A DNA stretch of 64,000 nt from Candidatus Sulfomarinibacter sp. (GTDB lineage: Bacteria; Acidobacteriota; Thermoanaerobaculia; Thermoanaerobaculales; Sulfomarinibacteraceae). The position numbers and the translations under genes were made by a program. The notes beneath the pieces were generated by a model, which did not search any database, was not told where the DNA came from, and worked only from the letters and a program-made list of their open reading frames with translations. Every line of letters starts with the position of its first letter. The stretch's first letter is position 1. Positions 13,117 to 59,544 of the stretch are shown one piece after another. The stretch lies in the NCBI GenBank assembly GCA_041560205.1, contig JBFFBV010000008.1:1467-65466 (forward strand). Direction: 5' to 3'.

Positions 13117-13254
13117 CTTCCGTCCCGAAGAAGGAGTCAGGAGGGATCGGGGCGGTCACGCGGGTCGGACCTGTGATGGAGGCAGCGGTCGATCAGTATA
13201 CTCATGGATGACGATGAAGCATGCAGGTGAGTCAATGAGCCGGGGGTCCCTGCT

Positions 13255-15543: not shown

Positions 15544-15765
15544 GCTCGTCGCGGATCCACGCCTGAGGAGGCCCGGGGTTCGCGATGGTATTCTGCGAGT
15601 TGTGATGCTTGACGAGAGTTCGCCGTTGAGCCCCGAACTCGGAGATCCCCGCACCCTCCCCGTGGCGGGTGGTTGTGGTCCTGTCTCGTGCGACCTCGAC
15701 CCACCATCGAGTGGCCAATGGTCGTCCGTGGTGAACCGAATGAGCGTTGGGAGGGCTGCGAACGA

Positions 15766-20522: not shown

Positions 20523-20656
20523 CTGCTTCAGTATAGAGAGGAAATAGGTGCGGGGCTGGGAATGGCGAGGAGCGTTCTGTCGACCGGATCGCCAGTTGCC
20601 CTCCGACCATTCGCCGCCGACGGAGCGGCATTGGCGATCAACGTTACAATGACGGC

Positions 20657-21772: not shown

Positions 21773-22867
21773 GTGCGGGTTGCCCTGGTGCACGATTGGA
21801 TGACCGGTATGCGTGGGGGCGAGTGGGTCCTCTACGACATCGCCCGTCTCTTTCCATCTGCGCCGATTTACACGCTGGTCCACCGTGCCGGGAGCGTGGC
21901 GCCGCTGCTTGAGGAACACCCGATCAATACTTCGTGGCTCCAGACCCCTTCGTTCGGCGGTCGACGGTGGCGATACCTCTTGCCACTGATGCCGGCCGCC
22001 GTAGAGTCCTTCGTGTTCAGAGACTTCGATCTGGTGATCTCGACCTCTCACGCGGTCGCCAAGGGTGTGATTCCTCCTCCCGGGGCCTTCCACCTGAGCT
22101 ATGTCCACACTCCGATGCGCTATGTCTGGGACCAGAGGAACCAATATCTGGATCCGATCCCGAAGCTTCTGCGACCGATCGTCGAGATGCGCTTCGCCCG
22201 CCTTCGGCAGTGGGACATGGTGTCCTCGGCGCGTGTCGACCGCCTCGTCGCCAACTCGCGTCTGGTGGCGTGGAGGATCAAGCACTACTGGAACCGGACC
22301 GCGGAGGTCATCCCTCCACCGGTCGCCACCGAGTACTTCACGCCGGGTGGTGAACGCGGAGACAATCTCTTGACGGTGGCCGCCCTCGTTCCGTACAAGA
22401 GGGTGGAGGATGCGATTGCGGTTGCCCGAAAGCTCGGTCGAAGACTCGAGATCGTCGGCACCGGCCCGAGGATGCGGGCTCTCCGGCGTCTCGGGGGCTC
22501 CGATGTGCGATTCCTTGGCTGGCTGGATCGGGAGCAGCTGCGCGAGGCCTACCGCCGCGCAGCGGCCCTGCTCGTTCCCAACGTCGAGGATTTCGGCATG
22601 GTCTCGGTGGAGGCTCTGGCCTGCGGGACGCCGGTCGTCGGTCTCGCACACTCCGGCACTGCGGACGTCATCCGTGCCGGTGTGGAGGGCGAGCTGGCCG
22701 GGGAGTCATCTGTCGATGCCCTTGTGGATGCGGCGGAGCGTGTTCTCGGCCGGACATGGGACCCTCGACAGCTTCGTGGTCGCGCAGACATCTTTTCGCG
22801 CGAGCGGTTTCGCACCCGCTTCGGATTCCTGCTCGATCGTCTCGGTTTCGGAGAGGCTCGGGAGTGA
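21773..22867 (+). CDS. Glycosyltransferase family 4
   Basis: GTG start immediately after stop codon 21770-21772. MRVALVHDWMTGMRGGEWVL; LLVPNVEDFGMVSVEALACGTPVV. Confidence 0.85.
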   Translation: MRVALVHDWMTGMRGGEWVLYDIARLFPSAPIYTLVHRAGSVAPLLEEHPINTSWLQTPSFGGRRWRYLLPLMPAAVESFVFRDFDLVISTSHAVAKGVIPPPGAFHLSYVHTPMRYVWDQRNQYLDPIPKLLRPIVEMRFARLRQWDMVSSARVDRLVANSRLVAWRIKHYWNRTAEVIPPPVATEYFTPGGERGDNLLTVAALVPYKRVEDAIAVARKLGRRLEIVGTGPRMRALRRLGGSDVRFLGWLDREQLREAYRRAAALLVPNVEDFGMVSVEALACGTPVVGLAHSGTADVIRAGVEGELAGESSVDALVDAAERVLGRTWDPRQLRGRADIFSRERFRTRFGFLLDRLGFGEARE

Positions 22868-24270
22868 TTGAACGACGGCGGCAGTTTCAGCTCCTGCTGC
22901 AGCTGATCGGCGACATCCTCGCGACTGCTGCAGCGGTCATCGTTGCCTACTGGCTGCGATTCGAGGTGCAGATCCAGCCGGTGACCAAGGGCGTGCCGCC
23001 GGCTCACATGTACCTGCAACTGGTACCGGTCGTGGTCGTCTTGTACCCGATCGTTTTCTATTTCCAGGGCCTGTATCAGAGGCGCCGGATTCGCTCGCGC
23101 TTCGACGAGTCGATGCGTGTTCTGGTAGCGGTGATGCTGGCGACCGTGCTCCTGACTGCGGGATTGACCTTCTATCGGCCGCCCGATTTCACGTACTCGC
23201 GGCTCTTCCTGGCCGTGTTCGCCGCGGTCGATGCGGTGCTCGTAGGTCTCACACGATGGTTGATCGGCGTGTCCCTGGCGCGCATCAGGCGGTCCGGCGG
23301 CAACCTCCAGAGGGTGTTGGTTGTCGGCGCAGGAGAGCTCGGGCGGACGGTCGTGGAGCGATTGAACCTTCACAAGGAGTACGGATTCTCGATCGTCGGC
23401 TTTCTCGACGACGACCCGGGCCGCCAGCAACGCCGCATCCAAGGCGTGCCCGTCCTCGGCACCACCCGCGACCTCGAACGTGTGATCGGGGAGGAAAAGG
23501 TCGACCAGGTCATGATCGCCCTGCCCCTCGAAGCCCATTACCGTACGGTGAAGCTCGTGCGACGTGCCGGGCAGCTCTTGGTGGACATCAAGGTGGTTCC
23601 TGATGTCCTCCAGTATTACGTCATGCGAGCTGGCATCGAGGACCTCGACGGCCTTCCGCTGATCAATCTGACCCAGATCCCGCTTCAAGGCTGGAACCAG
23701 ATCGTCAAACGGGCATTCGACATCTTTGGATCGGCCCTGTTGCTGGTGGCGACATCGTTGCTCTTCCCGATCGTCGCCTGGCTCATCAAGCGTGAGGATG
23801 GCGGCCCGGTGTTTTTCTCCCAGGTGCGGACAGGTCTCGACGGTCGTTCTTTCAGGCTATTCAAGTTTCGGTCGATGAGGATCGACGCCGAGGGGAATGG
23901 CGAGGCCCGCTGGACCCGAAGCCGGGACGCGCGCGTCACGCGGATCGGAGATTTCCTCCGCCGGACAAACCTCGACGAGCTCCCGCAGCTCTTCAACGTC
24001 CTGCGCGGAGACATGTCCCTCGTTGGTCCCCGGCCCGAGCAACCGAAGTTCGTCGAGCGATTCCGGAACCGGTATCCCACCTACAACTCCCGCCACAGGG
24101 TGCGCTCGGGGCTCACGGGCTGGGCTCAGGTCAACGGGCTGCGCGGTGACACCTCGATTCGGCAGCGGGTCGCGCACGACCTCTACTACATCGAGAACTG
24201 GAGCTTTGGGCTGGACATCAAGATCCTCTGGCGCACCTTTCGGATCGCATTGCACGAGGCGAGAGCTTAG
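22864..24270 (+). CDS. Polyprenyl-phosphate glycosylphosphotransferase (WbaP-like, second initiating transferase)
   Basis: GTG 22864 forms a GTGA overlap. N-terminal TMs, Rossmann-like VLVVGAGELGRTVV, C-terminal FRLFKFRSMRIDAE, RDARVTRIGDFLRRTNLDELPQLFNVLRGDMSLVGPRPE. Confidence 0.9.
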   Translation: MIERRRQFQLLLQLIGDILATAAAVIVAYWLRFEVQIQPVTKGVPPAHMYLQLVPVVVVLYPIVFYFQGLYQRRRIRSRFDESMRVLVAVMLATVLLTAGLTFYRPPDFTYSRLFLAVFAAVDAVLVGLTRWLIGVSLARIRRSGGNLQRVLVVGAGELGRTVVERLNLHKEYGFSIVGFLDDDPGRQQRRIQGVPVLGTTRDLERVIGEEKVDQVMIALPLEAHYRTVKLVRRAGQLLVDIKVVPDVLQYYVMRAGIEDLDGLPLINLTQIPLQGWNQIVKRAFDIFGSALLLVATSLLFPIVAWLIKREDGGPVFFSQVRTGLDGRSFRLFKFRSMRIDAEGNGEARWTRSRDARVTRIGDFLRRTNLDELPQLFNVLRGDMSLVGPRPEQPKFVERFRNRYPTYNSRHRVRSGLTGWAQVNGLRGDTSIRQRVAHDLYYIENWSFGLDIKILWRTFRIALHEARA

Positions 24271-24454
24271 TTTCTCTTCGGAATCGGTATCGGGCTTGGC
24301 GGTGGCGACTCGAAACCGTATCGAGATACCGGAAAAGTGCCGCGCCCAGTGGAATTGGACGCGAACACTGCCCATCAAGACGCGGCTGGCGCCAAGGTAA
24401 TTTTCATCCGATTCTGGTGAGCCCTGCTGGCTGCGGGGATTTTGAAATCGCCCA

Positions 24455-24542
24455 GGCGCAAAGCCGCCCACCGTCCCGCCCGCGCGAAGAATTCGCAAAG
24501 GGCCACTTTTGGTTCTTCTTTGCGTGCTTGGCGTCTTTGCGG
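24455..24542. repeat. Octamer-array element (NCGCAAAG units 24455-24463 and 24493-24500, facing CTTTGCGT/GCTTGGCGT/CTTTGCGG at 24518-24542)
   Basis: Read directly from the sequence. A related copy lies at 45899..45998. Confidence 0.6.
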
Positions 24543-24601
24543 GTTGAACGCGGTCGAAGCCGGACTGCTGTTTGAGGAACGGAATCGGGAGTGCGATCAG
24601 A

Positions 24602-25897
24602 TCAAGCTCGATACTCTGCGGCGCCTTCGACGGGCAAACCGGCCGCTTCGCGCAAAACCTGGGCAGTCGCCTCCGCGGCCCGATCCCAGGAGAATTTTCC
24701 AGCCCTTTCGCGGCCCAGGGCCACCAGACGATCCCGGTGCTGGGGATCGCGGAGGAGTGCCGCGGTCGCGGAGGCGATGCTGTGCGGGCTCTCGGGATCG
24801 ACGTAGATCGCTGCCGGGCCGGCGATCTCGGGCATCGAGGTCGTGCCGGAGGTCACGACCGGCGTCCCGCAGGCCATGCTTTCCAGGAGTGGAAGCCCGA
24901 AGCCTTCGAGCCACGACGGGAAAAGAGTCGCATCCGCGTTGCCGTACAAGGCCGCGAGCCGGGGGCGGTCCACGTAATCGAGGTGTCGGATACGCCCACG
25001 GACCGGCGAGCCTTCGAGCTCGTCGCGAATGGCGTCGGTCCTCCAACCCCAGCGGCCGACGAGGACCAGCTCGCCCTGATAACCCCATTCGACCAACAGC
25101 CGAAAGGCGCGCAAAACCCCGATCACGTTTTTCCTCGGCTCGAGGGTCGAGACGAAGAGCAGATACGGCTGCGAGATTCCGGGTGGCGGATCTGCCTCGG
25201 CGCCGTCCGCAAACCCCGGGTCGACACCCTCGTGGACGGTCCGGATCGATCGGGGGTTGATCTCGAGACGATCGACCAGATCACCGGCGGTCGCATCGGA
25301 GACCGCGATCAGGAGATCCGCGTGATAGAGCGTCCCCGGGAGATGCCTCTTCAGCCCGGCCAGGGTCATAGGTGAGACGGTGTCCGGCATGGAGGCAAAG
25401 GCGAGATCGTGGACCGTCGCCACCTGAGCCCGGCCGAATGGCTCCTGGTCGCCGTGGAGGAAGAAGTTCGGAGCGAAGAGCACGTGGTTACCGTCCAGTA
25501 TCCGCAAGATCGGCTCGACGACGTGGCGCAGCAGCGCGAGAGTGGGTCGAAGCGGCAACAAGAATCCACCGGGGATCTGATGAACCCGCAGACGCATCTT
25601 CCGCGATCCCGGCATCTTTGGGGGCGGCGTGTCGTCCGGCGCCAGGAATGTGCGGGCATAGAGGTTGTAGGTGATCCCGTCGTTTCTGCGGTCGAGAGCG
25701 GCCAACAGATTCCACTCGTACCAACCGACGCCGGTCATTCGCTCGTAAAACGGATAGACGTCGACACCGACGGCGATCTCCGATCGATTGTGCACGACTC
25801 GGGAGTGAAATCGCCGCCAGCGGGCTCGCAGGGTTCCCGCCCCGTCGCGGGCGATGGCGGAGAAGAAACCGGCTGTGGCCGTGAGGCGGCGGATCAT
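24602..25897 (-). CDS. Glycosyltransferase family 4
   Basis: Start ATG 25897 (MIRRLTATAG...). TLFPSWLEGFGLPLLESMACGTPVVTS. The longer track ORF to 26122 runs through the GGGCAC repeat (PVPVPV) and is unlikely to be coding. Confidence 0.85.
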   Translation of the reverse strand: MIRRLTATAGFFSAIARDGAGTLRARWRRFHSRVVHNRSEIAVGVDVYPFYERMTGVGWYEWNLLAALDRRNDGITYNLYARTFLAPDDTPPPKMPGSRKMRLRVHQIPGGFLLPLRPTLALLRHVVEPILRILDGNHVLFAPNFFLHGDQEPFGRAQVATVHDLAFASMPDTVSPMTLAGLKRHLPGTLYHADLLIAVSDATAGDLVDRLEINPRSIRTVHEGVDPGFADGAEADPPPGISQPYLLFVSTLEPRKNVIGVLRAFRLLVEWGYQGELVLVGRWGWRTDAIRDELEGSPVRGRIRHLDYVDRPRLAALYGNADATLFPSWLEGFGLPLLESMACGTPVVTSGTTSMPEIAGPAAIYVDPESPHSIASATAALLRDPQHRDRLVALGRERAGKFSWDRAAEATAQVLREAAGLPVEGAAEYRA

Positions 25898-25939
25898 GAG
25901 GGACGATTTTACCGCAGCTTGGGATTCGGAAACGAAAAC

Positions 25940-25967
25940 GGGCACGGGCACGGGCACGGGACCGGGG
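25940..25967 (+). repeat. Tandem hexamer (GGGCAC)x3-4 / canonical G-quadruplex motif
   Basis: GGGcacGGGcacGGGcacGGGaccGGGG sits in the 83-nt divergent region between GT genes starting at 25897 (-) and 25981 (+). Confidence 0.7.
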
Positions 25968-25980
25968 TAGGATGGGCGCG

Positions 25981-27099
25981 ATGAAGGTCGGGGTGATTGC
26001 AGCCGAGATCGAGGGCCGTGCAACCGGTGTCGGTCGGTACCTGAGCGGTCTGCTTCAGGGTCTCGAGTCCTGGGACCACGGAGTCGAGTGGCATTTCTTC
26101 TTTCAGGGAGATCCTCCTTCATCGTCTCGCCTTCCGGATGGGCCGTACCACGCGCACCACTCGCACCACCGAGGCAGCAGAGTCTGGTGGGAGCAGGTGC
26201 TCGTCGCGCGTAGACTGGCCGAAGTCGATCTGGACGTCGTCTTCGGACCCGCCTACACCTTGCCCTTCGCTTTGACGGCGCCGGGTGTGGTGACCATCCA
26301 CGATCTCAGCTTCGAGGTCCTGCCGGAGGAGTTCGGTCCACGTGAGCGATGGCGCCGACGACTCCTCGCGCGGCGGGCGGCACGGATCGCCCGGCGTGTG
26401 ATCACCGACACGGAGCACATGTCTTCCCTTGTCGGGGCGCGTTACGGCATTGCCGGCGATCGGCTCGCTGTCGTACCCCTGGCAGTTGACGGTGGCACAT
26501 TCACCCCGGCCTCTCGGCACGAGGACGCAGGCATCCTGAACGATCTGGGAGTCGGGTCACCTTACGTTCTGTTACCCGGAACAGTTCTCGAACGACGGCA
26601 TCCACGCTGCGTTTTGGAGGCATTCGCCCTCGTGCACGCTGATCACCCGGACCTCCAGCTGGTGGTTGCGGGCGCGAATCGTATGCGACGATCAGAGGAT
26701 CTCGCCGCGTGGATCGATGACCTCGGGTTGAGGGGAGCGGTGCAGCTGCTCGGATGGGTTGAGGATGCGGCGCTCGCGCCGCTGTACCGCGGGGCGGAGC
26801 TCGGCATCTACGTGTCCCGCCACGAAGGTTTCGGCCTGCCGCCGCTCGAGTGCCTGGCGTGTGGCACACCGGTCATCGTCGAACGCGGCCTCGGCCTGGA
26901 CGACGTCTGGCCGGACTACCCATTCAGGCTTCGCGCTGTGGATTCAGAGAGCATCGCAGCGGCCATCGAGGGGGTCCTCGAAGACCGCTCGGGAACCTAT
27001 CGGGCCATGGCCGAGGCACCTGCGGCGATCGCGGGCCTCGACTGGGAGCAGAGCTCGCGTCGACTCGTGGCGGAGCTCGAACGGGCGGTGCAGGCGTGA
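25981..27099 (+). CDS. Glycosyltransferase family 4
   Basis: MKVGVIAAEIEGRATGVGRYL; YVSRHEGFGLPPLECLACGTPVIV. An alternative ATG exists at 25972. Confidence 0.85.
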   Translation: MKVGVIAAEIEGRATGVGRYLSGLLQGLESWDHGVEWHFFFQGDPPSSSRLPDGPYHAHHSHHRGSRVWWEQVLVARRLAEVDLDVVFGPAYTLPFALTAPGVVTIHDLSFEVLPEEFGPRERWRRRLLARRAARIARRVITDTEHMSSLVGARYGIAGDRLAVVPLAVDGGTFTPASRHEDAGILNDLGVGSPYVLLPGTVLERRHPRCVLEAFALVHADHPDLQLVVAGANRMRRSEDLAAWIDDLGLRGAVQLLGWVEDAALAPLYRGAELGIYVSRHEGFGLPPLECLACGTPVIVERGLGLDDVWPDYPFRLRAVDSESIAAAIEGVLEDRSGTYRAMAEAPAAIAGLDWEQSSRRLVAELERAVQA

Positions 27100-27917
27100 T
27101 CACAGCGATCATCGTCAATCGCGACGGAGAGGCGACGCTCGGCCGCTGCCTGGAAAGCCTCGACGGTCCGGGGATCGAGGTGGTCCTCGTCGACAACGCA
27201 TCGGAGGACGGCTCCCTGTCGTTAATCCGGGAGCGATTTCCGAAGGTCACTGTCCTCCCCCAAAAAAGCAACCTCGGCTTCGCCGCCGCCAACAATTTGG
27301 CGGCGGAAAAAGCGAGTGGGGAAGCGCTGCTGCTCCTCAATAACGACGCCTGGCTCGAGACCGGCGCTCTCGAGCTTCTCGCAAATCGTCTCCGCGGCCG
27401 CTCCGATGTTGGATTGGCGGCGCCGCGTCTGGAGTACCCGGACGGCGGGCCTCAGTTCGCGTGGTCGCCCGTGCGAGGTGTTTTCGGTGAGGTGATACAG
27501 ATCCTGCGAAACCCCTTCGAGTCGCACCCTTGGGCTCACGGGACACTGATGCGGGCGACGGCCCGACTGTTGGGTCCACTGTGGTACACGGCAGCCTGTG
27601 TTCTCGTTCGGAGCGAAGCCTGGCGTTCGGTCGGAGGCTTCGACGAGCGATTTTTCATGTATTTCGAAGACGTGGACCTGTGCATACGCCTCGGCAACGC
27701 CGGCTGGCGTTTGGAGCAGGAGCGGGAGGCCGTGGTTCGGCACGCGGGTGCGGCCAACCGGGCGGGGTGGGTCGACGACCTCTATCGACCGTCGCAGCTG
27801 CGCTACTATCGGATCCATCGGCCGACGTGGGAAGCGCGGCTCATCGAAGGCCGGATGCGTCGGCGATTCGGAGACACTGCGGTGGATCGTTGGCTTGCGC
27901 GTGAAGGAGTGCGATGA
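27096..27917 (+). CDS. Glycosyltransferase family 2
   Basis: GTG 27096 forms a GTGA overlap. ITAIIVNRDGEATLGRCLESL..VVLVDNASEDGS, LLLNNDAWLE, FFMYFEDVDLCIRLGNAGWR. Confidence 0.85.
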   Translation: MITAIIVNRDGEATLGRCLESLDGPGIEVVLVDNASEDGSLSLIRERFPKVTVLPQKSNLGFAAANNLAAEKASGEALLLLNNDAWLETGALELLANRLRGRSDVGLAAPRLEYPDGGPQFAWSPVRGVFGEVIQILRNPFESHPWAHGTLMRATARLLGPLWYTAACVLVRSEAWRSVGGFDERFFMYFEDVDLCIRLGNAGWRLEQEREAVVRHAGAANRAGWVDDLYRPSQLRYYRIHRPTWEARLIEGRMRRRFGDTAVDRWLAREGVR

Positions 27918-28141
27918 CAACGGCGCTGGTCGTCGCCGGCCTGTCCGCAACAGTCGCGGTAGGCGCTGTCGTCCTGCGTGGGCTCATGCGGCGTTTGAAG
28001 CTTTTGCGTCGGCTGGACCGGGCCGAGTCGGTGGTGGCGGATGCGATGGCGGACGGCCGCCTCGCGATCGCAACCGGTGAGGCGCTCTTGCAGCATCTTG
28101 ACGGCCTGCGAAGGGCCTGTATCCGAGGTGGGGAGGGCTGA
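27914..28141 (+). CDS. Small single-pass membrane protein (75 aa), unknown function
   Basis: ATGA overlap with the upstream GT2, and it ends 2 nt before the next GT start, filling the gap exactly. N-terminal TM TALVVAGLSATVAVGAVVL, then an Arg/Leu-rich helix. Confidence 0.5.
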   Translation: MTTALVVAGLSATVAVGAVVLRGLMRRLKLLRRLDRAESVVADAMADGRLAIATGEALLQHLDGLRRACIRGGEG

Positions 28142-28143
28142 GC

Positions 28144-29235
28144 TTGCGGCTCGGCGTCGATGTCGGTCGGGCGCTGCACGGACACGGCGGTGTCGCGACC
28201 TACACCCGGGAGTTGGTCCATGCCCTCGTTCAGTCGCGCAGAGTGGATGAAATCGTCCTCTTCGATCTCGACCGCGGAAGATGGAAGCGAGCGTACTTCG
28301 AGAGCTCACTTGGTCATTTGCCATCGAATATCTTCATCGAGCGTGCGAACCGGCGCGAGCTGGAGGCGCTTGACCTCTTTCACGCTCCGGGTTACGCCAT
28401 GCCGCCCGTCGGCACACCGCGCTACGTTTTTACCCTCCACGACCTGACGGTCCTGAGTCATTCCTTCTGCCACACCCTCGCAAACCGGGTGCGGACGCTG
28501 GCTTCCATTTCCGACGCGCTGGCCAGGAGCGCGACGATTCTGGCCGTATCCAAGGCGACGAAGGAAGAGACGGTCCGGCTGCTGGCGCTGCCGACGGCCT
28601 CGGTCGAGGTCGTGCCGCCGATGCTCAATCCGATCTTCAAAGTGGCCGGCGATTGCGAAAAGGACCTTGCAATGGCAGCACGCCTGGGGGTTCGGGAGCC
28701 CTTCGTGCTCGCCGTCGCGAGCTTGGAGCCGCGCAAGAACTTCGGTCGGCTGCTCGATGCCTGGACCTCCCTCGGAGCGGCCACGGGCGCGCACCAGCTC
28801 GTCGTGGTTGCGGCGGAAGGGTGGCGGCAGGGGAGGGTTCGCCGCCGCTTGGAGCGGATGACCGGCGATGGGTCGGTCGTGAAGATCGGTCACATCCCGG
28901 ATGAGGCGCTGGCGGGCCTCTACCGCCGTGCCAATGCCTTTGTTTTCCCGTCATTGGCGGAGGGCTTCGGTCTGCCGGTGGTCGAGGCCATGGCCTGCGG
29001 CGCACCGGTCGTGACATCAAAGGTGTCCTCCCTTCCGGAGGTCTGTGGTGACGCGGCGATGCTGGTCGATCCGGAGGACACCGACGAGATTGCGGCCGCC
29101 ATCGAGCATCTGCTCGCGGACCGCAGGCTGCACCGGCGTCTACGCGACCGAGGCCTCGAGCGAGCGCGTTCGTACTCCCGAGAGGCGGTCATACCCCGTC
29201 TCTTCGAAGTCTACCGCCGCGCCGCCCAGCGCTAA
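28144..29235 (+). CDS. Glycosyltransferase family 4
   Basis: TTG start. MRLGVDVGRALHGHGGVATYTREL; FVFPSLAEGFGLPVVEAMACGAPVVTS. Confidence 0.85.
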   Translation: MRLGVDVGRALHGHGGVATYTRELVHALVQSRRVDEIVLFDLDRGRWKRAYFESSLGHLPSNIFIERANRRELEALDLFHAPGYAMPPVGTPRYVFTLHDLTVLSHSFCHTLANRVRTLASISDALARSATILAVSKATKEETVRLLALPTASVEVVPPMLNPIFKVAGDCEKDLAMAARLGVREPFVLAVASLEPRKNFGRLLDAWTSLGAATGAHQLVVVAAEGWRQGRVRRRLERMTGDGSVVKIGHIPDEALAGLYRRANAFVFPSLAEGFGLPVVEAMACGAPVVTSKVSSLPEVCGDAAMLVDPEDTDEIAAAIEHLLADRRLHRRLRDRGLERARSYSREAVIPRLFEVYRRAAQR

Positions 29236-35947: not shown

Positions 35948-36892
35948 TTAAATCTGATGACGCCACCAGTCGAGCAGATCGCCAAGGGTCTGGCCCAGAG
36001 GGATTTCCGGCCGCCACCCGGTGAGATCGGTGAAACGCGAGTTGTCGCCGACGAGTTGGGGAATGTCGGCGGTCCGCAAACGACCGGGATCTTCCTCGAT
36101 CTCCACTTCGACACCGGAGGCTTCGATGAGGATTTCGAGCACTCGGCGAATGCTCGTACCCTGGCTCGAGCACACGTTGTAGACACCGCCGGCGATGCCA
36201 TCGGTCGCGGCCAGCCAATAGGCGCGTGCAACGTCGCGGACATCGGTGAAATCCCGGATGGCGTCGAGGTTTCCGACCGTCAATCGTGGCGGGTCGAGCC
36301 CTCTCTCGATGCGGGCGAGCTGACGGGCAAAGCTCGAAGCGGCGAACTGTGGCGGCCGACCGGGTCCGGTGTGGTTGAAGAGGCGGAGCCGCACCGTGTC
36401 GAGACCGTGACCATGGAAGTACTGAGCCGTGACGAGATCCTGTGCCGCCTTGCTGGCTGCGTAGGGCGAGATCGGCTCCAAAGGCGCATCCTCGTTGATT
36501 GGCTGATGCTCTGCCGGCACCGCTCCGTAGATCTCACCTGTCGATGCGACAACCACCCGCGTGGTGTTGCCATTTGCACGCACGGCTTCCAGGAGATTGG
36601 CCGTACCGATCGCGTTGACCTCGAGGAACCAACCAGCTTCTTTCCACGAGCCGGCCACCGATGATGCGGCTGCAAGGTGAAACACGATGTCCGGCCGCGC
36701 CGAGCTGAACGCCGCCGCCAATGACGAGACATCGGTGATATCGCCCTCGATCGGACGGACTGAATTGGGAGGCGCTGCCCGGTCCCCGGCCCACACGAGG
36801 CCCCAGATCTCGTGATCGGGCTTCGTTCCGGCGATGTGCCGGACGAGGTGCGGACCGGCGAAACCCGAGACCCCGGTGATCAGGATTCGCAC
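35948..36892 (-). CDS. NAD-dependent epimerase/dehydratase (extended SDR; GDP-4-keto-6-deoxymannose reductase-like)
   Basis: MRILITGVSGFAGPHL; SPYAASKAAQD (YxxxK); RLFNHTGPG. Confidence 0.8.
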   Translation of the reverse strand: MRILITGVSGFAGPHLVRHIAGTKPDHEIWGLVWAGDRAAPPNSVRPIEGDITDVSSLAAAFSSARPDIVFHLAAASSVAGSWKEAGWFLEVNAIGTANLLEAVRANGNTTRVVVASTGEIYGAVPAEHQPINEDAPLEPISPYAASKAAQDLVTAQYFHGHGLDTVRLRLFNHTGPGRPPQFAASSFARQLARIERGLDPPRLTVGNLDAIRDFTDVRDVARAYWLAATDGIAGGVYNVCSSQGTSIRRVLEILIEASGVEVEIEEDPGRLRTADIPQLVGDNSRFTDLTGWRPEIPLGQTLGDLLDWWRHQI

Positions 36893-37746
36893 GAAGGCTC
36901 CAGATACCGGGCCAGGGCGTCATCCCAGTCGGGCATACTCCGGCCGATGAGGGTCGACAGTCGGGTGTTGTCGAGAACCGAGAAACCAGGCCGACGCGCT
37001 GGGCGTGAAAACTCTTCCGAGGTGACCTCTCGAATATCGATGTCTGTGCCGAGGAGACCGGCAATGGCCTGGGCGAATCCGTGCCAGGTGGTTTCGCCGC
37101 CATTGACAGCGTGCACGACACCGTCGGCGCCAGCTCTGACGAGGTCGAGGATCGCCTCCGCGAGGTCCCCGCAGTAGGTGGGGCTGCCCCGCTGATCGAT
37201 CACCACCTTGAGATGGTCCGCCCCACCCTTGATCTGGCTCCGAATGGTCTCGACGAAGTTCCGACCGCCGTGACCATAAAGCCACGCTGTTCGCACGACG
37301 AGGTGGTGATCGGCATCGGCCGCCAACTCTTCGCCGTGGAGCTTCGTGCGCCCATAGGCGTTGATCGGTGCGACCGGATCGTCCTCCCGGTACGGGCGTT
37401 CGCTGGTGCCGTCAAAGACGTAGTCTGTCGAAATCTGTACGAGACGCGCCCCGATCGCATTGCACGCGGAAGCCAGGTAGCCGACCGCAGTGCCGTTGAT
37501 CCGCATGGCGGCCGCCTCGTCGGATTCGCAATCGTCGACTGCGGTGAGGGCTGCGCAGTTGACCACATTCGTGGGCCGTGCGGCCTCGATCCACGCGCTG
37601 ACCGCGGCCGCGTCGCTGATGTCGATGGTGTCGATGTCGCGACCTTCGAAATCGATCCCCCTGGCCATGCAGGTGGCCGCCAGTGCACGACCGAGCTGAC
37701 CGTGGACGCCCGTGATCAGGATCTTGGCTCCGTGGCTCTTCGACAT
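36880..37746 (-). CDS. rfbD: dTDP-4-dehydrorhamnose reductase
   Basis: KILITGVHGQLGRAL, VVNCAALTAVDDCE, ISTDYVFDG, YGRTKLHGE. Confidence 0.9.
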   Translation of the reverse strand: MSKSHGAKILITGVHGQLGRALAATCMARGIDFEGRDIDTIDISDAAAVSAWIEAARPTNVVNCAALTAVDDCESDEAAAMRINGTAVGYLASACNAIGARLVQISTDYVFDGTSERPYREDDPVAPINAYGRTKLHGEELAADADHHLVVRTAWLYGHGGRNFVETIRSQIKGGADHLKVVIDQRGSPTYCGDLAEAILDLVRAGADGVVHAVNGGETTWHGFAQAIAGLLGTDIDIREVTSEEFSRPARRPGFSVLDNTRLSTLIGRSMPDWDDALARYLEPSCES

Positions 37747-37966
37747 CGTCCGGATGGTAGCAAACCGCCCTCCCGCCCGGCTTCACGGGAATGCGGCTTC
37801 CACCGCCGGCCCGCCCACAGCTATACGGCGATTCCGGCGTGAGAACGCATCAGCGTCGCGCCCTCAAGCCGTTCAGCTGTAATGCCGTCTTCTCGGATGG
37901 TTGGTTGGGGGGGCTGGAATACGCTATCCTGTGGCGCGATTGTCCGTCGGCGAAGGAGAGCTGCAG

Positions 37967-40403: not shown

Positions 40404-40847
40404 TCAGCCCGGGTATTTCCCGGTGATGAAGTTCATCAGATCCTGGATGTGCCCCTCCTGATTGCGGCTGACGCTTCGTGTGAGATCGCCCGAGGAAACG
40501 AGACCTTTCAGCTCTCCATCATCGACCACGGGCAGGTGACGGATCCGTCTTTCGGTGATGACCGCCATCGCCTCGTCGACCCGGGTGCCTGACCCGACCG
40601 TCACGACCTCCGCGGTCATTACCTCGACAACGCGGGTGGCGCCGGGGTCCCGCCCCGCGGCCACCACCCGGTTGAGCACATCGCGTTCCGTGAAGATGCC
40701 GACCATTTCGCCCGAGATGCAGACCAGCACGGCGCCGATTCGTTCCTCGTTCATCTTTTTGACGGCGTCGAGCACCGTGGCCTCGGGCACCACGTGGTGG
40801 ATAGCGCGTCCTTTTTCCTCTAAGACTGCGTTGAGAGAATCCTTCAT
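40404..40847 (-). CDS. CBS-domain pair protein
   Basis: GGAGGA RBS then ATG 40847. Two CBS motifs (IGAVLVCISGEMVGIFTERDVL ; IRHLPVVDDGELKGLVSSGDL). Confidence 0.85.
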   Translation of the reverse strand: MKDSLNAVLEEKGRAIHHVVPEATVLDAVKKMNEERIGAVLVCISGEMVGIFTERDVLNRVVAAGRDPGATRVVEVMTAEVVTVGSGTRVDEAMAVITERRIRHLPVVDDGELKGLVSSGDLTRSVSRNQEGHIQDLMNFITGKYPG

Positions 40848-44603: not shown

Positions 44604-45167
44604 TTATCGCTTGGCCGCCGGCGCGCTCTCGAACAAAACCAAATACGCCCCGTAGCCGTTCTCCTCGAGCTCCTCGACGGGGACGAATCGGAGCGCCGCC
44701 GAGTTGATGCAGTAGCGGAGCCCGGTCGGAGCCGGTCCGTCGGGAAAGACGTGGCCGAGATGCGAGTCGGCGTTCGCGGAACGAACCTCGGTCCGGACCA
44801 TCAGCCAGCTGCGGTCCTTCTTCTCGACGATGTTCTCCGCGACGAGGGGCTGGGTGAAGCTGGGCCACCCGGTGCCGGAGTCGAACTTGTGGATCGAGGC
44901 GAAGAGCGGCTCCCCCGAAACGACGTCAACGTAGATTCCGGCACGGTGGTTGTTCCAGTACTCGTTTTGGAAGGCCGGTTCGGTCCCGTCCTTCTGGGTC
45001 ACCTTGTACTGCATCGGGGTCAACTTTTCTCTGAGTTCCTTGTCGCTCATCTTTTCCACTCCAGAATTCCAGGTCACTGTTCGGTCCTCCTGGGCGGTGC
45101 CCGTTATCGGCGCCAACAGCGCGCAACTCAGGAGGCACGCCGCGCCTGCCAGAATCGTGTTCTTCAT
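44604..45167 (-). CDS. msrB: Peptide-methionine (R)-S-oxide reductase with N-terminal signal/lipobox-like sequence
   Basis: [26 protein letters not shown]; [36 protein letters not shown]. Confidence 0.95.
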
Positions 45168-45787
45168 TTTGCTGCTCCCCAGAGCTCTGCCAAGCGTCGA
45201 TCCCTTCCACAGCCCTTGCGATAGTACGAATAGCGGATCGGATTCTTTTTGGAGTAATCCTGGTGGTAAGCCTCGGCCGGGTAAAAGGCCGTGGCGGCGA
45301 TGATTTCGGTGACGATCGGGTCCGGGAAGGGTTTGGACTTCTCGAGTTCGGCCCGGGACCGCTCCGCCGCCTGGCGCTGCGCGTCGTCGTGGAAGAAGAT
45401 CCCACTCCGGTACTGGCTCCCGACATCGCAGAACTGGCGATCAGAAACCGTCGGATCGATGTTGCGCCAGAAGACCTCGAGCAGCTCTTCGTAACTGACG
45501 ACCTCGGGATCGAAGACCACCCGCACGGCCTCGGTGTGACCGGTCGTGCCTGCGGAGACCTGTTTGTACGTCGGGTTCGCGACCTGACCCCCGGTGTAGC
45601 CCGAGGTCACCGAGAGCACGCCCTCGACCTTCTCGAAATCGGCCTCGATGCACCAGAAGCAGCCGCCCGCAAAGGTCGCGTAGGCCGTGTCACCCTCGCC
45701 AGCGATCGCCGGCGGGGCGACGACCAGGCCCGCAATCAGTAACATCACGGCTCTTTCTGGGCGCATCCTCAATTTTTCAGTTGTCAT
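45164..45787 (-). CDS. msrA: Peptide-methionine (S)-S-oxide reductase with N-terminal signal peptide
   Basis: GGAGGA RBS then ATG 45787. [21 protein letters not shown], then [35 protein letters not shown] overlap with msrB. Confidence 0.95.
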
Positions 45788-47289: not shown

Positions 47290-48462
47290 CTATCGGCGAA
47301 GCTTCCGGAGGCGCACGACCTCCTCGACGATTCGGACGGCGGCCCGGTCGATCTCGTCCGCTGTCGTGAAACGTCCGAGACTGATCCGGAGCGAAGCCTT
47401 CGCGAGCTCTGCTTTGACGCCCATCGCCATCAGGACCGGCGAGGCCTCCGGATGCGATGAGGTACAGGCCGATCCGCTGCTCACCGCGAGGTCCGGGAGT
47501 GAGGCGAGAAGCGCATTGCCCTCAACGCCTGCAAACGAGATATTGGTCGTGCCGGGCAGGCGGTGGTCCGGCGATCCGTTGACCCTGCTTCCATCGACCG
47601 AGGAGATGACGGCCTCTTCGAGACGATCGCGCAAATCGGCGATCCGAGGTGCTTCATCGCCGAGGGCGGCGCCGCCGATCTCGAGAGCCCGGGCGAGGGC
47701 GACGGCCCCGGGAAGATTCGGGGTTCCGGAACGCAGCCCGCCCTCGTGACCGCCGCCGTGAACCAGAGGCGTCAACGTGAGGGACGGCTTGGCTCTTCGG
47801 ATGTACAACGCTCCGATTCCCTTCGGTGCGTAGAACTTGTGGCCCGAGATGCTCAGCAGGTCAACCCCCAGCTCCACCACGTTGACGGGGATCTTGCCAA
47901 CACCCTGGGCCGCGTCGCAGTGGAAAACCGCGCCGCGTGCGTGGGCCAGCTGCGAGGCTTCTTGAACCGGCTGAATGGTGCCGGTTTCGTTGTTGGCGAG
48001 CATGAGGCTGACCAGAACGGTGTCATCCCGCAGCGCCGCCTTGAGCGCGTCGAGCCGAACCTGTCCCCGCCCGTCGACCCCGACCTCGGTCAGCTCCCAC
48101 CCTTCATCGCGAAGTGCACGCAGGGCGGCGATCACCGACGGGTGCTCGGTCTTCTGGGTGACGAGGTGGCGTCCGCGACCTGTCAACGAGTTCGCCGCTC
48201 CAATTAGGGCCAGGTTGTTGGCTTCGGTAGCACCCGAGGTGAACACGACCTCGGCCGACGATTTGGCGCCGAGGATTTGTGCCGTCGTGCTCCGGGCCTC
48301 CTCAAGGGCGGCGAAGGCCTCGCGGCCCGGTCGGTGGCTGCGGCTTGCCGGGTTCGCGGCAACCGCCTCGAAGTACGGCTGCATCGCCTCGATCACTCTC
48401 GGATCGCAAGGCGTCGAGGCGTTGTAATCCAGGTATATGACGTCAGCTGACATGATCGACAT
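47290..48462 (-). CDS. Cysteine desulfurase (NifS/IscS class V aminotransferase)
   Basis: IYLDYNASTP, FTSGATEANN, SGHKFYAPKGIGALYIRR, SSGSACTS. Confidence 0.9.
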   Translation of the reverse strand: MSIMSADVIYLDYNASTPCDPRVIEAMQPYFEAVAANPASRSHRPGREAFAALEEARSTTAQILGAKSSAEVVFTSGATEANNLALIGAANSLTGRGRHLVTQKTEHPSVIAALRALRDEGWELTEVGVDGRGQVRLDALKAALRDDTVLVSLMLANNETGTIQPVQEASQLAHARGAVFHCDAAQGVGKIPVNVVELGVDLLSISGHKFYAPKGIGALYIRRAKPSLTLTPLVHGGGHEGGLRSGTPNLPGAVALARALEIGGAALGDEAPRIADLRDRLEEAVISSVDGSRVNGSPDHRLPGTTNISFAGVEGNALLASLPDLAVSSGSACTSSHPEASPVLMAMGVKAELAKASLRISLGRFTTADEIDRAAVRIVEEVVRLRKLRR

Positions 48463-48498
48463 CGCGATTCTACATGTGGCCGGAGGTCTTTCGCTTCA

Positions 48499-56653: not shown

Positions 56654-57646
56654 ATGGCGGCACGTGCGAGCGCTGGCCAGCGGACGTGGGTCAAGGACCT
56701 CTGCGCCGGGACCGACCTCGACGAGTGTTTCGCCGTGCGCAGCGTCGATGTCCGCCAACGACGGGGGGGTGGTCCCTATCTCGCGGCGACGATCGGCGAC
56801 AAGACGGGCGAGGTGACCGCCCTGGTCTGGCAGAACGTGGATCGGCTGCGTGAGGTCCTCGAGCCCGGCAGCGTGGTTTCGGTCAAAGGACAGGTGCAGA
56901 AATACAACCAGCAGCTCCAGGTCGTCGTTCGCCAGGCCGAGGCCCTCCCCGGTGAATCGGTCGAAGACCAGCTCTTCGTGCGCTCGTCGGCGGTCGACCC
57001 TGCCGTGCTGTGGGAACAGCTCAACGTTTTCATCGAGGAAGTTGGCGATGGCGATCTCCGTCAGCTGCTCTTCCGGATCTTCTCGGATCCGGAGACCGAG
57101 AAGCTCTTCCGCGCGGCCCCGGCGGCCCGCTCCATGCACCACGCCTTTCGCTCCGGTCTCCTGGAGCACACCGTGTCCGTAACAACGATGGCACGTCGAT
57201 TGGCACGTCACTACGAGTTGAGCGAGGATCTCGTGGTTGCCGGGTGCCTCCTTCACGACTTCGGAAAGATCTGGGAGTTGGAGATTGGCGCCTCGATCGA
57301 GTACACCGACGATGGCCGTTTGATCGGCCACATCCCGATGGAGGCTCTCTTCGTCGACAAAAAAATCGGTGAGATGAAAAAGTTCCCCGCCGAAACTCGG
57401 CGGCAGCTCCTGCACATTCTCCTCTCTCACCACGGCGAGTACGACTTCGGTTCTCCCCGGCGGCCGAAGACCCCCGAAGCCTTGTTGGTGCATATGGTCG
57501 ACAACCTCGACTCGAAGATGGCGGGGATGATGGAGGCGATAGCCGCCCAGGGATCCGACGGCGAGGCGTGGACGCCCTATTCACGAATCCTCGAACGCCA
57601 CATCTACCGACGCCGAATGCCGTCGAATGACGAGGGCTCGGAATAG
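56654..57646 (+). CDS. OB-fold plus HD-domain phosphohydrolase (YhaM-like 3'-5' exoribonuclease family)
   Basis: ATG 56654 is 1 nt after the previous stop. OB fold (ATIGDKTGEVTALVWQN..VSVKGQVQKYNQQLQVVV). HD motifs HHAFRSGLLEHT, LLHDFGK, LSHHGEYDFGSP. Confidence 0.85.
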   Translation: MAARASAGQRTWVKDLCAGTDLDECFAVRSVDVRQRRGGGPYLAATIGDKTGEVTALVWQNVDRLREVLEPGSVVSVKGQVQKYNQQLQVVVRQAEALPGESVEDQLFVRSSAVDPAVLWEQLNVFIEEVGDGDLRQLLFRIFSDPETEKLFRAAPAARSMHHAFRSGLLEHTVSVTTMARRLARHYELSEDLVVAGCLLHDFGKIWELEIGASIEYTDDGRLIGHIPMEALFVDKKIGEMKKFPAETRRQLLHILLSHHGEYDFGSPRRPKTPEALLVHMVDNLDSKMAGMMEAIAAQGSDGEAWTPYSRILERHIYRRRMPSNDEGSE

Positions 57647-57741
57647 ATTAGATGGGCACCCGCTCGTCAGGAGCGCGTGGCCGCTTCGACGACACCGGTG
57701 CGACCCCGCCCATTCCGAGCGCTTCGCTGCATCGATGTCAC

Positions 57742-57823
57742 AGGTGCCACTCTTCGCATTGCTTGAATCATTCGCGCCTCAGTAGCTCAGCGCCTTGAGG
57801 GCAAACAATGCGAAGAGTGGCAC
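57742..57823. repeat. 19-bp perfect inverted repeat (GGTGCCACTCTTCGCATTG / CAATGCGAAGAGTGGCACC) around a 44-nt loop with a nested hairpin
   Basis: Arms at 57742..57760 and 57805..57823. Located between convergent gene ends at 57646 (+) and 57904 (-). Confidence 0.8.
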
Positions 57824-57903
57824 CATGCGCGCCGCACGCCGAAGCAACAGGCGAAAAGAAGCGTCGTTGAAGGTGGCACCCGGCACACCGAATCGAGAAG
57901 CGC

Positions 57904-58125
57904 CTACCGGGTTCGGATGATCGACGCAACTTCCCCATCGTCCGGGAATCGGCCGAGGGACCTCTTCGAGAAAACCAGTTCACCGTCGACGACGACCTCG
58001 AAGTCCCCGTTCGCACCCTTGATCAGACGCGTCGACGCGTCGAAATCCCGATTCAGTTCGGCCGCCAGCCCGGCGGCCCGAGGCTCGTAATTTCAAACGA
58101 CGCAGTATTCGATCGAAATGTCCAT
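57904..58125 (-). CDS. SelW-like (Rdx family) selenoprotein, 73 aa, Sec encoded by in-frame TGA at 58093-58095
   Basis: Minus strand: GGAGGActgATG(58125). Translation is MDISIEYCVV-U-NYEPRAAGLAAELNRDFDASTRLIKGANGDFEVVVDGELVFSKRSLGRFPDDGEVASIIRTR, ending at TAG (57904-57906). It has a CxxU redox motif and the family signature FEVxVDGELVxSKxxxGRFP. Confidence 0.8.
58060..58078 (-). other. Bacterial SECIS-like hairpin
   Basis: mRNA GGCCGCC-GGGCU-GGCGGCC (7-bp stem, GG in the apical loop) begins 15 nt 3' of the UGA. Confidence 0.55.
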
Positions 58126-58388
58126 CAGTCCTCCACGCTTCACAACGAAATCATACCTCGACCTCCTTCCGGCGTTGATTCGATCCCGGTCCCGAATGGT
58201 GTCGGCGCCTCCAATCGGTGGACAATGACTGCCTCGGGACCATGATTCTTAACTCTTTACTTTTAGGTTATTTGCCACCAGAATGGAGACATGAAACACG
58301 GCCAAGACCGGTGCCTGCATCGTTACGGTGCTAGCATCGTGCCCACCGGGACCAACGATGGTCCTGCGGCCTCCGTAAACGGATACGG

Positions 58389-58415
58389 GGAACGATGGTG
58401 AGGGAGATCCCGTGT
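58389..58415 (+). promoter_or_regulatory. Candidate ECF-type promoter GGAAC-N17-CGTGT
   Basis: GGAAC at 58389..58393 and CGT at 58411..58413, ~40 nt upstream of ATG 58455. This is consistent with autoregulated ECF sigma operons and argues against the longer track start at 58395. Confidence 0.3.
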
Positions 58416-58454
58416 GTTCAGCCTGCTGGACTCGGCAGCCGTAATGGGGTGGTC

Positions 58455-59030
58455 ATGAACGACCCCCAGTGGATCCAGTCTGCCAAGGCCGGCGATGAGA
58501 GTGCCTTTGCGGAGTTGGTACGACGCCATTCCGCGGGCCTCCACCGGGCGGTGGCACGGATCCTCGCCGACGATACGGAAGCCTGGGACGTGGTGCAGAT
58601 GGCATTTCTCAAGGCCTGGCAGAAGCTCGAACGCTACGATCCTCGCTACAGCTTCACGACGTGGCTGTATCGCATCGGCACCAATCTGGCCATCGATCTC
58701 CTGCGTTCCCGGAGCAGCCGAGAGCGGGCTCACAAGGCTGGCACCGAGCACCGGCTGCGGCTCGTCGGGAACGGCGAGGGCGCCGGTTCGAGGGCGGAAG
58801 GCCGTGAAGCCGACGAAATCCTGTGTCAGCTGGTCGGTGTTCTCACACCGCAGCAGCGAAGCGCCTTCGTTCTGCGCGAGATGGAAGGTCTCGAAACGGC
58901 CGAGGTCGCGGACGTCCTCGGGTGCTCTGCGACCACCGTCCGCAACCACATTTTCCAGGCGCGAAAAGCGCTCCGCAGGGAGCTCAAAGAGCGTTTCCCA
59001 GAGTACCTGCCGGCATCCGAGAGGGGATGA
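58455..59030 (+). CDS. ECF-subfamily RNA polymerase sigma-70 factor
   Basis: Region 2: AFAELVRRHSAGLHRAVARIL..AWDVVQMAFLKAW..FTTWLYRIGTNLAIDLLR. Region 4: LTPQQRSAFVLREMEGLETAEVADVLGCSATTVRNHIFQARKALR. Confidence 0.9.
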   Translation: MNDPQWIQSAKAGDESAFAELVRRHSAGLHRAVARILADDTEAWDVVQMAFLKAWQKLERYDPRYSFTTWLYRIGTNLAIDLLRSRSSRERAHKAGTEHRLRLVGNGEGAGSRAEGREADEILCQLVGVLTPQQRSAFVLREMEGLETAEVADVLGCSATTVRNHIFQARKALRRELKERFPEYLPASERG

Positions 59031-59031
59031 T

Positions 59032-59544
59032 ATGAACTGCGAGATCTTTCGTGAGATGATCGGGTCCTACGTGGACGAAACACTCGAGGAGGACCGTCGA
59101 CGGTGGTTTCGGGACCACCTCCGAGAGTGCGGAGCCTGCCGGGATGTCGCGGTGCAGGAGGAGCCGAGCCTTTTCTTCGCGGTCGCTCCGTCGCCCGTCT
59201 CCGATCTGGCGGCGATCGAGGACTGTGTGGCGGCAGTCACCTCACGGATCCGTCAGGACCGTTTCGAGCGTCGTCTGCGTCGAAACCGCCGGCCGTGGAT
59301 GGCCGCAGCGGCAGCTGCGGCCATGGTGATCGGAAGCGGTCTCACGTGGCGCGCTTTCACCGGTGACGATGGGGTGAAACCGGGGCCGACCATCGAGGCG
59401 TCTCGTGGCGCCGTGAGCCAAGCGACCCCTCCGACCGTGGAAGTAGAGATGCCGGGCGAAGACGTTCGCGTCTATCAATTCGCCACGGACGGAGACGATG
59501 ACACAGCCGTATATTTCATCGTCGATCCCGCGCTGGAGCTCTGA
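59032..59544 (+). CDS. Anti-sigma factor (zf-HC2), single-pass membrane
   Basis: ATG is 1 nt after the sigma stop. HLRECGAC (H-x3-C-x2-C). TM WMAAAAAAAMVIGSGLTW. ~70-aa periplasmic tail. Confidence 0.8.
   Translation: MNCEIFREMIGSYVDETLEEDRRRWFRDHLRECGACRDVAVQEEPSLFFAVAPSPVSDLAAIEDCVAAVTSRIRQDRFERRLRRNRRPWMAAAAAAAMVIGSGLTWRAFTGDDGVKPGPTIEASRGAVSQATPPTVEVEMPGEDVRVYQFATDGDDDTAVYFIVDPALEL

Follow-up and report, generated by a model that had tools for sequence, protein, structure and literature searches.

The selenoprotein family that was most abundant in the Sargasso Sea data, with 48 genes, is the SelW-like one, whose members carry a CxxU motif in which U stands for selenocysteine (Sec) (PMC1088965). 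SelW-like proteins belong to many bacterial selenoproteomes, and Cys homologues of them are few in organisms that use Sec (PMC1794560). Acidobacteria were on record as having selenoproteins as early as 2006 (PMC1794560), and a 2026 review enters the SelW-like proteins as PF10262/CxxU (PMC13188914). A further member, here called selW, is found on the minus strand at positions 57904–58125 of a 64,000-nucleotide stretch of DNA from Candidatus Sulfomarinibacter sp. (contig JBFFBV010000008.1); the whole stretch is referred to below as the window. On comparative grounds the gene is very probably intact and encodes a SelW-like (Rdx-family) selenoprotein of 73 residues, in which an in-frame UGA is read as Sec. 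Because its product passes the curated equivalog model NF041051, selW is an instance of a known family, one that has been catalogued among bacterial selenoproteins since 2005 (PMC1088965). A literature search found no paper linking Sulfomarinibacter or Thermoanaerobaculia with selenocysteine.

The selW reading frame and its product

All signals of the gene lie on the minus strand. A Shine-Dalgarno sequence, GGAGGA (58129–58134), is separated by a spacer of 3 nt from the ATG start codon (58123–58125), and of 25 listed relatives most have a GGAGG-like motif at the equivalent position. The choice of start is also supported by the conserved N-terminus, M-D/K-I/V-x-I-E/T-Y-C, which is common to the orthologues. 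From this ATG the frame gives MDISIEYCVV, followed by TGA as codon 11 (58093–58095), 62 sense codons and the true stop codon, TAG (57904–57906), and the stop codons of the orthologues lie no more than a few codons from the same point. The CxxU redox motif, C8-V-V-U11, opens with Cys8 (codon TGC, 58102–58104), a residue that is Cys in 80/80 orthologues. The ribosome-binding site, the start codon and the frame running through TGA to TAG had all been proposed in an initial annotation made from the sequence alone, and their coordinates match those found here.

That annotation had also remarked that the list of open reading frames (ORFs) holds nothing in the selW frame, which is indeed the case. 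Codon 1 is the sole in-frame ATG, GTG or TTG of the whole gene, which is why ORF finders are blind to it. With no start codon 3′ of the UGA, the C-terminal 62 codons are reachable solely via read-through. The listed ORFs that overlap selW are one of 82 codons in another frame of the same strand (57768–58016) and one on the plus strand (57917–58090). When codon usage is modelled on the genes of the window itself, the two halves of selW both score as coding, with +0.53 and +0.35 bits per codon.

Similarity to the Rdx family had been anticipated, and it is borne out by searches with hidden Markov models (HMMs), for which the query was the 73-residue translation with Cys substituted at the UGA codon. 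Pfam Rdx (PF10262) is matched with E = 7.6e-19 and 68.1 bits against a cutoff of 22.6, and 72 of the 74 profile positions are covered. The NCBIfam model TIGR02174 (CXXU_selWTH) gives 57.2 bits against a cutoff of 34.2, and the equivalog model NF041051, named ‘SelT/SelW/SelH family (seleno)protein’, gives 93.4 bits against a curated cutoff of 88. Seven solved Rdx proteins match by sequence with E values from 3e-8 to 1e-3, including 3DEX (3e-8) and 2FA8 (3e-7). In these two structures the segment YCTQC, a CxxC motif, is aligned to YCVV[UGA] of selW, with its second Cys at UGA codon 11. The residues C8-x-x-[UGA]11 are thus found at the CxxC/CxxU redox centre, where the initial annotation had placed them.

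The fold was assessed on an orthologue of 58% identity, P0006, which is full-length and naturally of the Cys form, and it is transferred to the window protein by homology. The AlphaFold model of P0006 has a predicted local distance difference test score (pLDDT) of 88.9 and the order beta1(2–8)-alpha1(14–27)-beta2-beta3-beta4-alpha2, with the CxxC residues 8–11 at the junction of beta1 and alpha1. The best 23 neighbours of the model in the PDB are all SelW-related or Rdx proteins, and thioredoxins rank next. The closest is 2FA8, with a template modelling (TM) score of 0.91, followed by 2OBK, 3DEX, 2OJL, 2OKA, 2P0G, MIEN1 and mouse SelW (2NPB). As modelled through this orthologue, the selW product is a small protein of thioredoxin-like fold in which Cys8 and Sec11 are predicted to lie between beta1 and alpha1.

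Orthologues were collected by a scan of one genome per species, which gave 351 relatives, and the best 80 loci, from 80 species, were analysed; together with the window they make up the sets of 81 sequences used below. These loci (numbered with the prefix L) come mainly from Thermoanaerobaculia/Ca. Sulfomarinibacteraceae of the Acidobacteriota, but also from Gemmatimonadota, Planctomycetota and others. The aligned codon 11 is TGA in 80/80 loci, so that it is TGA in 81/81 sequences with the window included, and the protein is conserved on either side of it. The selW protein is 81% identical to that of its nearest relative, L001, with no frameshift and no extra stop. Among the 65 relatives that align without gaps, differences at third codon positions number 273 against 165 and 111 at the other two positions for codons 1–10, and 1867 against 1076 and 947 for codons 24–73. 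This dominance of third-position differences before and after the UGA indicates that the same frame is under protein-level selection on both sides. Termination at codon 11 followed by loss of conservation, which the initial annotation had named as an outcome that would speak against a selenoprotein, is therefore not what the orthologues display. Given the Rdx match, the TGA of all 80 loci and the coding character of both halves, the read-through frame with its conserved TGA is far beyond chance.

Cys and Sec alternate at this codon, a comparison that had been proposed at the outset. The CxxC of 3DEX and 2FA8 falls on the CxxU of selW, and P0006 (L082 564–800) has TGT at codon 11, one nucleotide from TGA. 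Despite its TGT, P0006 retains a complete hairpin, GGCCGCC-GGUCU-GGCGGCC, in the region that is discussed below for selW. Its TGT would result either from a conversion of Sec to Cys of very recent date or from an error in the sequence of the 1.2-kb Logan contig.

The hairpin 3′ of the UGA codon

A hairpin with the sequence GGCCGCC-GGGCU-GGCGGCC lies on the minus strand at 58060–58078, and by its fold and covariation it is the core of a bacterial selenocysteine insertion sequence (SECIS). Its 7-bp stem (58078–58072 paired with 58066–58060) carries the loop GGGCU (58071–58067), and the whole element falls within codons R16-A17-A18-G19-L20-A21-A22. The stem starts at the 15th nucleotide after the UGA, with 14 nt between the two, and the loop opens with GG; a GC hairpin of this kind, at this distance, is what the initial annotation had reported. 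The published constraints on bacterial SECIS (bSECIS) elements, taken from the 2026 review (PMC13188914), allow an apical loop of 3–9 nt (here 5 nt), an upper stem of 4–16 bp (here 7 bp) and a UGA-to-loop spacing of 16–37 nt (here 21 nt). They further require at least one G in the first two loop positions, both of which are G here, and a minimum free energy (MFE) of −7.5 kcal/mol or lower, for which the hairpin gives −16.5 kcal/mol. Placement and shape, described in advance as SECIS-like, thus fall within every one of these constraints.

Covariation in an ungapped alignment of the 81 sequences (A1) was examined for a structure taken from one of the aligned sequences. Stem cells are paired in 95.3% of cases, as against 15–62% with slid partners. 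Compensatory changes account for 14 cells in two of the seven pairs, and the covariation score was reached by 0/500 shuffles. One of the two pairs is found as GC in 43 sequences, GU in 11, CG in 7 and AU in 1, and the other as CG in 64, UG in 7, UA in 3, AU in 2 and GC in 1. Both use third codon positions, joining Arg16 with Ala22 and Ala17 with Ala21; the stem changes are synonymous and therefore reflect selection on the RNA.

The remaining synonymous sites of the stem are frozen, with GCC in 75/75 Ala codons at Ala18 and CTG in 74/80 Leu codons at Leu20. In contrast, the invariant Pro15 just 5′ of the stem uses all four of its codons. At least five of the seven stem pairs are present in the sequence's own MFE fold in 74 of the 81 cases. 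Most loops are GGUCU (53 sequences); the window and its closest relatives, 20 sequences in all, have GGGCU, a further 6 have AGUUU, and two loops are singletons. RNA-level selection acts on the hairpin, and it does so at a bSECIS distance from the UGA.

A distinct form of the hairpin is found in six loci of a Planctomycetota type (L051, L063, L065, L066, L067 and L072), in which QATSLAAD replaces RAAGLAAE (A1 columns 24–42). An A-C mismatch interrupts their stem (GGCCACC/GGCGGCC), and the loop reads AGUUU, or GUU (3 nt) in an alternative register. These loci represent a diverged form of the SECIS within the SelW-like family. In a permissive Rfam scan the bare hairpin of selW also drew a 12.8-bit match to isrD, which was discarded as chance.

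Probable decoding of the UGA codon

By analogy with the established bacterial Sec pathway, we infer the involvement of SelB and tRNA-Sec and the incorporation of selenium. Translation would begin at ATG 58125. At the UGA of codon 11, SelB, the Sec-specific elongation factor, would bind the apical loop GGGCU of the hairpin (58078–58060) and, together with GTP and Sec-tRNA(Sec), would compete with release factor 2 and place selenocysteine in the A site. The ribosome would then read 62 further codons to the TAG at 57904. The product is most likely a thiol-dependent oxidoreductase, in which the predicted Cys8/Sec11 pair would cycle between the selenol/thiol and the selenenylsulfide. The comparative evidence supports the claim of the initial annotation, and the organism probably decodes UGA as selenocysteine.

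Several observations weigh against this reading. ARAGORN found no tRNA, including tRNA-Sec, within the 64-kb window, and neither SelA, SelB nor SelD turned up there when 40 window ORFs were scanned with Pfam. The family itself is described as ‘predicted with high confidence’ and is not experimentally verified in bacteria (PMC13188914). The orthologue scan was seeded partly with YEPRAAGL, and because this peptide is encoded in the hairpin region, the sample in which 80/80 loci have TGA may be enriched for Sec forms. As regards the hairpin, an Rfam scan of the whole window at the gathering threshold and permissive scans of 57850–58250 and 57640–57910 returned no SECIS or other real family. RNAalifold on the 81-sequence alignment gave a weak helix of 4 bp that is shifted in register and shows no covariation; the 7-bp stem is retained over this helix because explicit pair counts and per-sequence folds favour it. 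The single-sequence shuffle z scores are modest in this DNA of 64% GC, at −0.94 for 71 nt and −2.66 for the 27-nt core. The authentic SECIS of Escherichia coli fdhF scores only −1.33 in the same kind of test, which is thus of low power.

A rival reading is that there is no selenoprotein gene at all, the ORF and hairpin being by-products of GC-rich DNA and an Ala/Gly-rich peptide, or the real gene being the ORF at 57768–58016. Coding DNA rich in GCC and GCG forms hairpins readily, and both the modest z scores and the failure of RNAalifold to recover the stem would fit such an origin. It is nonetheless refuted by the comparative data and can be set aside as having almost no probability: HMM E-values run from 1e-19 to 1e-27, substitution in the selW frame is dominated by third positions with orthologues in 80 species, and synonymous sites in the stem either stay frozen or vary as compensatory pairs, beyond what protein-level selection alone would give. 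A general reassignment of UGA to a sense codon (Trp or Gly, as in codes 4 or 25), which would need no special recoding, is just as close to negligible. Its attraction lies in two public metagenome entries, P0001 (L083 1–246) and P0004, which show Trp at the Sec position (CVVW and CTIW). The DNA of P0001, however, has TGA at the site, and the deposited protein is not reproduced under table 11, so that this Trp is a translation artefact; the source of the entry apparently applied a UGA=Trp code to that contig. Homologues carry Cys at the site rather than Trp or Gly. Moreover, TGA is the commonest stop codon in the window, ending 22 of 36 well-supported ORFs, which refutes a sense reading and means that the recoding is local and the genetic code unchanged.

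Two further explanations accept the UGA and the hairpin as real, and each is given only a slight chance. In one of them codon 11 is read but Cys is inserted, either by a tRNA-Sec-like tRNA-Cys (an opal suppressor of the selC* type) or when selenium supply is poor. Possible opal suppressors of this kind, tRNA-Cys species that mimic tRNA-Sec, are described from a number of anaerobic bacterial phyla, and unusual allo-tRNAs resembling tRNA-Sec from Acidobacteria, but selC* itself is reported from Firmicutes, Thermodesulfobacteria, Nitrospirae and Proteobacteria and not from Acidobacteria (PMC5389517). The TGT of P0006 indicates that a Cys-form orthologue exists in nature. Yet a one-step change from TGA to TGT or TGC would end the cost of recoding, and TGA and hairpin are kept in 80/80 species all the same, which argues that Sec itself is selected. 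A version of this idea confined to the acidobacterial clade, in which a selC*-type tRNA-Cys or another non-canonical suppressor would yield Cys or a conditional Sec/Cys mixture, and in which the GGGCU loop (third position U to G) would mark a SelB-SECIS recognition diverged from the fdhF-type GGUC, is likewise improbable. The other explanation holds selW to be a relic: the source genome would have lost its Sec machinery, translation would end at codon 11, and the locus would simply have escaped decay so far. Sister lineages are documented to have lost the Sec trait and SelW-like genes (PMC1794560), and the machinery was looked for, with none found, in the 64-kb window only. A relic is hard to reconcile with the intact ribosome-binding site, start codon, Cys8, UGA, hairpin and 62 downstream codons, or with 81% identity to the closest relative and two coding halves free of frameshifts and extra stops. 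The retention of TGA and hairpin in all 80 relatives makes a relic unlikely as well as Cys insertion of the selC* type, and a selenoprotein gene with its UGA read as Sec is the preferred reading.

The window was screened for other UGA-interrupted genes in two ways, by GC composition and by the codon-usage model, and the codon-model screen gave no further credible candidate besides selW. A marginal candidate at 40449–40823 is without a redox motif and was judged not credible. No tRNA is found in loci L001–L040. Two further genes lie about 10–13 kb from selW, both on the minus strand: an MsrB gene (SelR domain, E = 1e-48; 44604–45440) and a class-V aminotransferase gene of the NifS, cysteine-desulfurase-like or selenocysteine-lyase-like kind (47290–48495). 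Both are without an in-frame UGA, and neither is selenium-specific.

Genomic surroundings and relation to described systems

Upstream of selW and divergent from it are genes for an extracytoplasmic function (ECF) sigma factor (58395–59030), a zf-HC2 anti-sigma factor and a Secretin_N protein, and the type II secretion system (T2SS) genes F and E. Downstream and convergent are an OB-fold/HD-domain gene, which ends at 57646, a SurA-like gene and a peptidyl-prolyl isomerase gene. This neighbourhood is conserved in about 22 Thermoanaerobaculales-like loci, and the window is placed in that group because it shares the neighbourhood and is 81% identical to L001. A second acidobacterial group has a membrane-protein-like ORF upstream of selW and a further conserved ORF downstream, while Gemmatimonadales have a third, distinct set of conserved neighbour ORFs. 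Synteny is thus strong within clades, but no partner is shared across them, and no functional inference is drawn from context.

The genes for the sigma factor and for the anti-sigma factor, the latter of the zinc-binding anti-sigma (ZAS) type, occupy 58395–59544 (plus strand) and are divergent from selW in about 22 loci. ZAS anti-sigma factors are often thiol-redox sensors. A regulatory link between this anti-sigma factor and the selenoprotein is conceivable, but the clade-specific synteny may merely reflect vertical inheritance. The intergenic region between selW and the sigma factor gene corresponds to 58126–58394 in the window and to about 2810–3000 in L001, L004, L006–L013, L019 and L021. 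Many relatives share in this region a conserved block, GTTTACGGA...CCGTTGG, which reads AAC-N17-CGTA on the strand of the sigma gene and in its sequence resembles an autoregulated promoter of the ECF type. Beside it is a perfect stem that resembles a bidirectional terminator, with a T-run on one flank and an A-run on the other. Neither the promoter-like block nor the stem is present in the window, L002 or L003, which have instead an AT-rich block, GGCAAATAACC...GTAAAGAGTTAAG.

On the selW strand, a TATGAT hexamer at 58150–58155 may be a −10 promoter element. Its recurrence in relatives suggests this: a TATGAT block lies 25–30 nt 5′ of the ATG in the window and in L002, L003, L007, L010, L014, L019, L021 and L028. 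A consensus promoter scan called no promoter on this strand. The same place holds a mini-ORF of four codons (ATG ATT TCG TTG TGA; 58141–58155, minus strand), which lies just 5′ of the selW ribosome-binding site and 7 nt 3′ of a second GGAGG motif. The TATGAT box, which several relatives conserve, overlaps the ATGAT of this mini-ORF, and a −10 promoter element is more likely here than a translated upstream ORF.

About 80 nt 3′ of the selW stop codon, between the convergent selW and HD/OB genes, lies an 82-nt palindromic element (57743–57824, both strands). It consists of 23-nt arms, GGTGCCACTCTTCGCATTGYTTG and its complement, which are 96% complementary and are separated by a 36-nt spacer; its folding energy is −56.7 kcal/mol (z = −6.3). 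The window holds one copy, and the arms recur in four related Sulfomarinibacteraceae-like genomes, at L003 3375–3456, L014 2682–2764, L017 2808–2888 and L028 2544–2623 and 2843–2922. The copy in L003 is at the orthologous position with an identical spacer, and those in L014, L017 and L028 are upstream of selW with different spacers. Rfam scans gave no real family for the element, and the matches to microRNA precursors were dismissed as spurious. From its sequence it looks like a dispersed palindrome of the repetitive extragenic palindromic (REP) or miniature inverted-repeat transposable element (MITE) kind, or a protein-binding inverted repeat.

Elsewhere in the window, a polysaccharide-biosynthesis cluster (9561–29235) encodes two initiating sugar transferases of the Bac_transf family and at least six glycosyltransferases of families GT4 and GT2, together with several long ORFs without a Pfam match (13231–15543, 18433–19755 and 19590–20693). 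It is followed by RmlD-type and dehydratase-type genes at 35948–37782.

The main value of selW is for annotation, since standard ORF callers give nothing here or a truncated C-terminal fragment. Coverage of the query is below 85% for 42/46 of the protein-database relatives; most of the entries are fragments some 50 residues long that start 3′ of the UGA, the typical output of gene callers at a Sec codon. A correct call adds one selenoprotein to the proteome of the organism, and would imply that the organism requires selenium and has a Sec-decoding system. It is also a further data point for SelW-like proteins being almost exclusively of the Sec form across several phyla. The locus is an annotation gain and opens no new question.

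Among the systems to which selW can be compared are eukaryotic ones. Mouse SelW (2NPB) and MIEN1 (2LJK) share the Rdx fold and a CxxU or CxxC motif with the selW family at about 26–28% identity. Eukaryotic SelW depends on a SECIS in the 3′ untranslated region with SBP2 and eEFSec, unlike the hairpin within the selW coding sequence. The Cys-form Rdx structures (Atu0228 2FA8, SAV_2001 3DEX, 2OBK, 2OKA, 2OJL and 2P0G) have TM scores of 0.85–0.91 to the P0006 model and place the motif at an equal position. They differ in that they have CxxC instead of CxxU, are about 30 residues longer than selW and need no recoding.

The SECIS of E. coli fdhF, whose sequence was confirmed against 5,419 E. coli genomes, is likewise a hairpin within the ORF directly 3′ of the Sec UGA, and G is the first base of its small apical loop. 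Its predicted loop, GGUC, is contained in GGUCU, the majority loop of the SelW family (53/81), whereas the window has G in place of U at the third loop position. The fdhF element has a bulged U, while the selW stem is a perfect 7-bp GC helix without one; its UGA-to-loop distance is 18 nt against 21 nt in selW, and the host protein is unrelated.

The nearest counterparts are the bacterial SelW-like selenoproteins, which Zhang and Gladyshev were the first to catalogue (PMC1088965; PMC1794560). The host lineage of selW, Thermoanaerobaculia/Ca. Sulfomarinibacteraceae-like Acidobacteriota, is unmentioned in the family literature examined. The likeness is close: selW belongs to the same curated HMM family, has the CxxU motif at the N-terminus and a length of about 70–75 residues, and carries its SECIS hairpin inside the coding sequence just 3′ of the UGA, and Sec forms outnumber Cys forms. 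There is no substantive difference between them, the clade of the window having the loop GGGCU where the majority has GGUCU.

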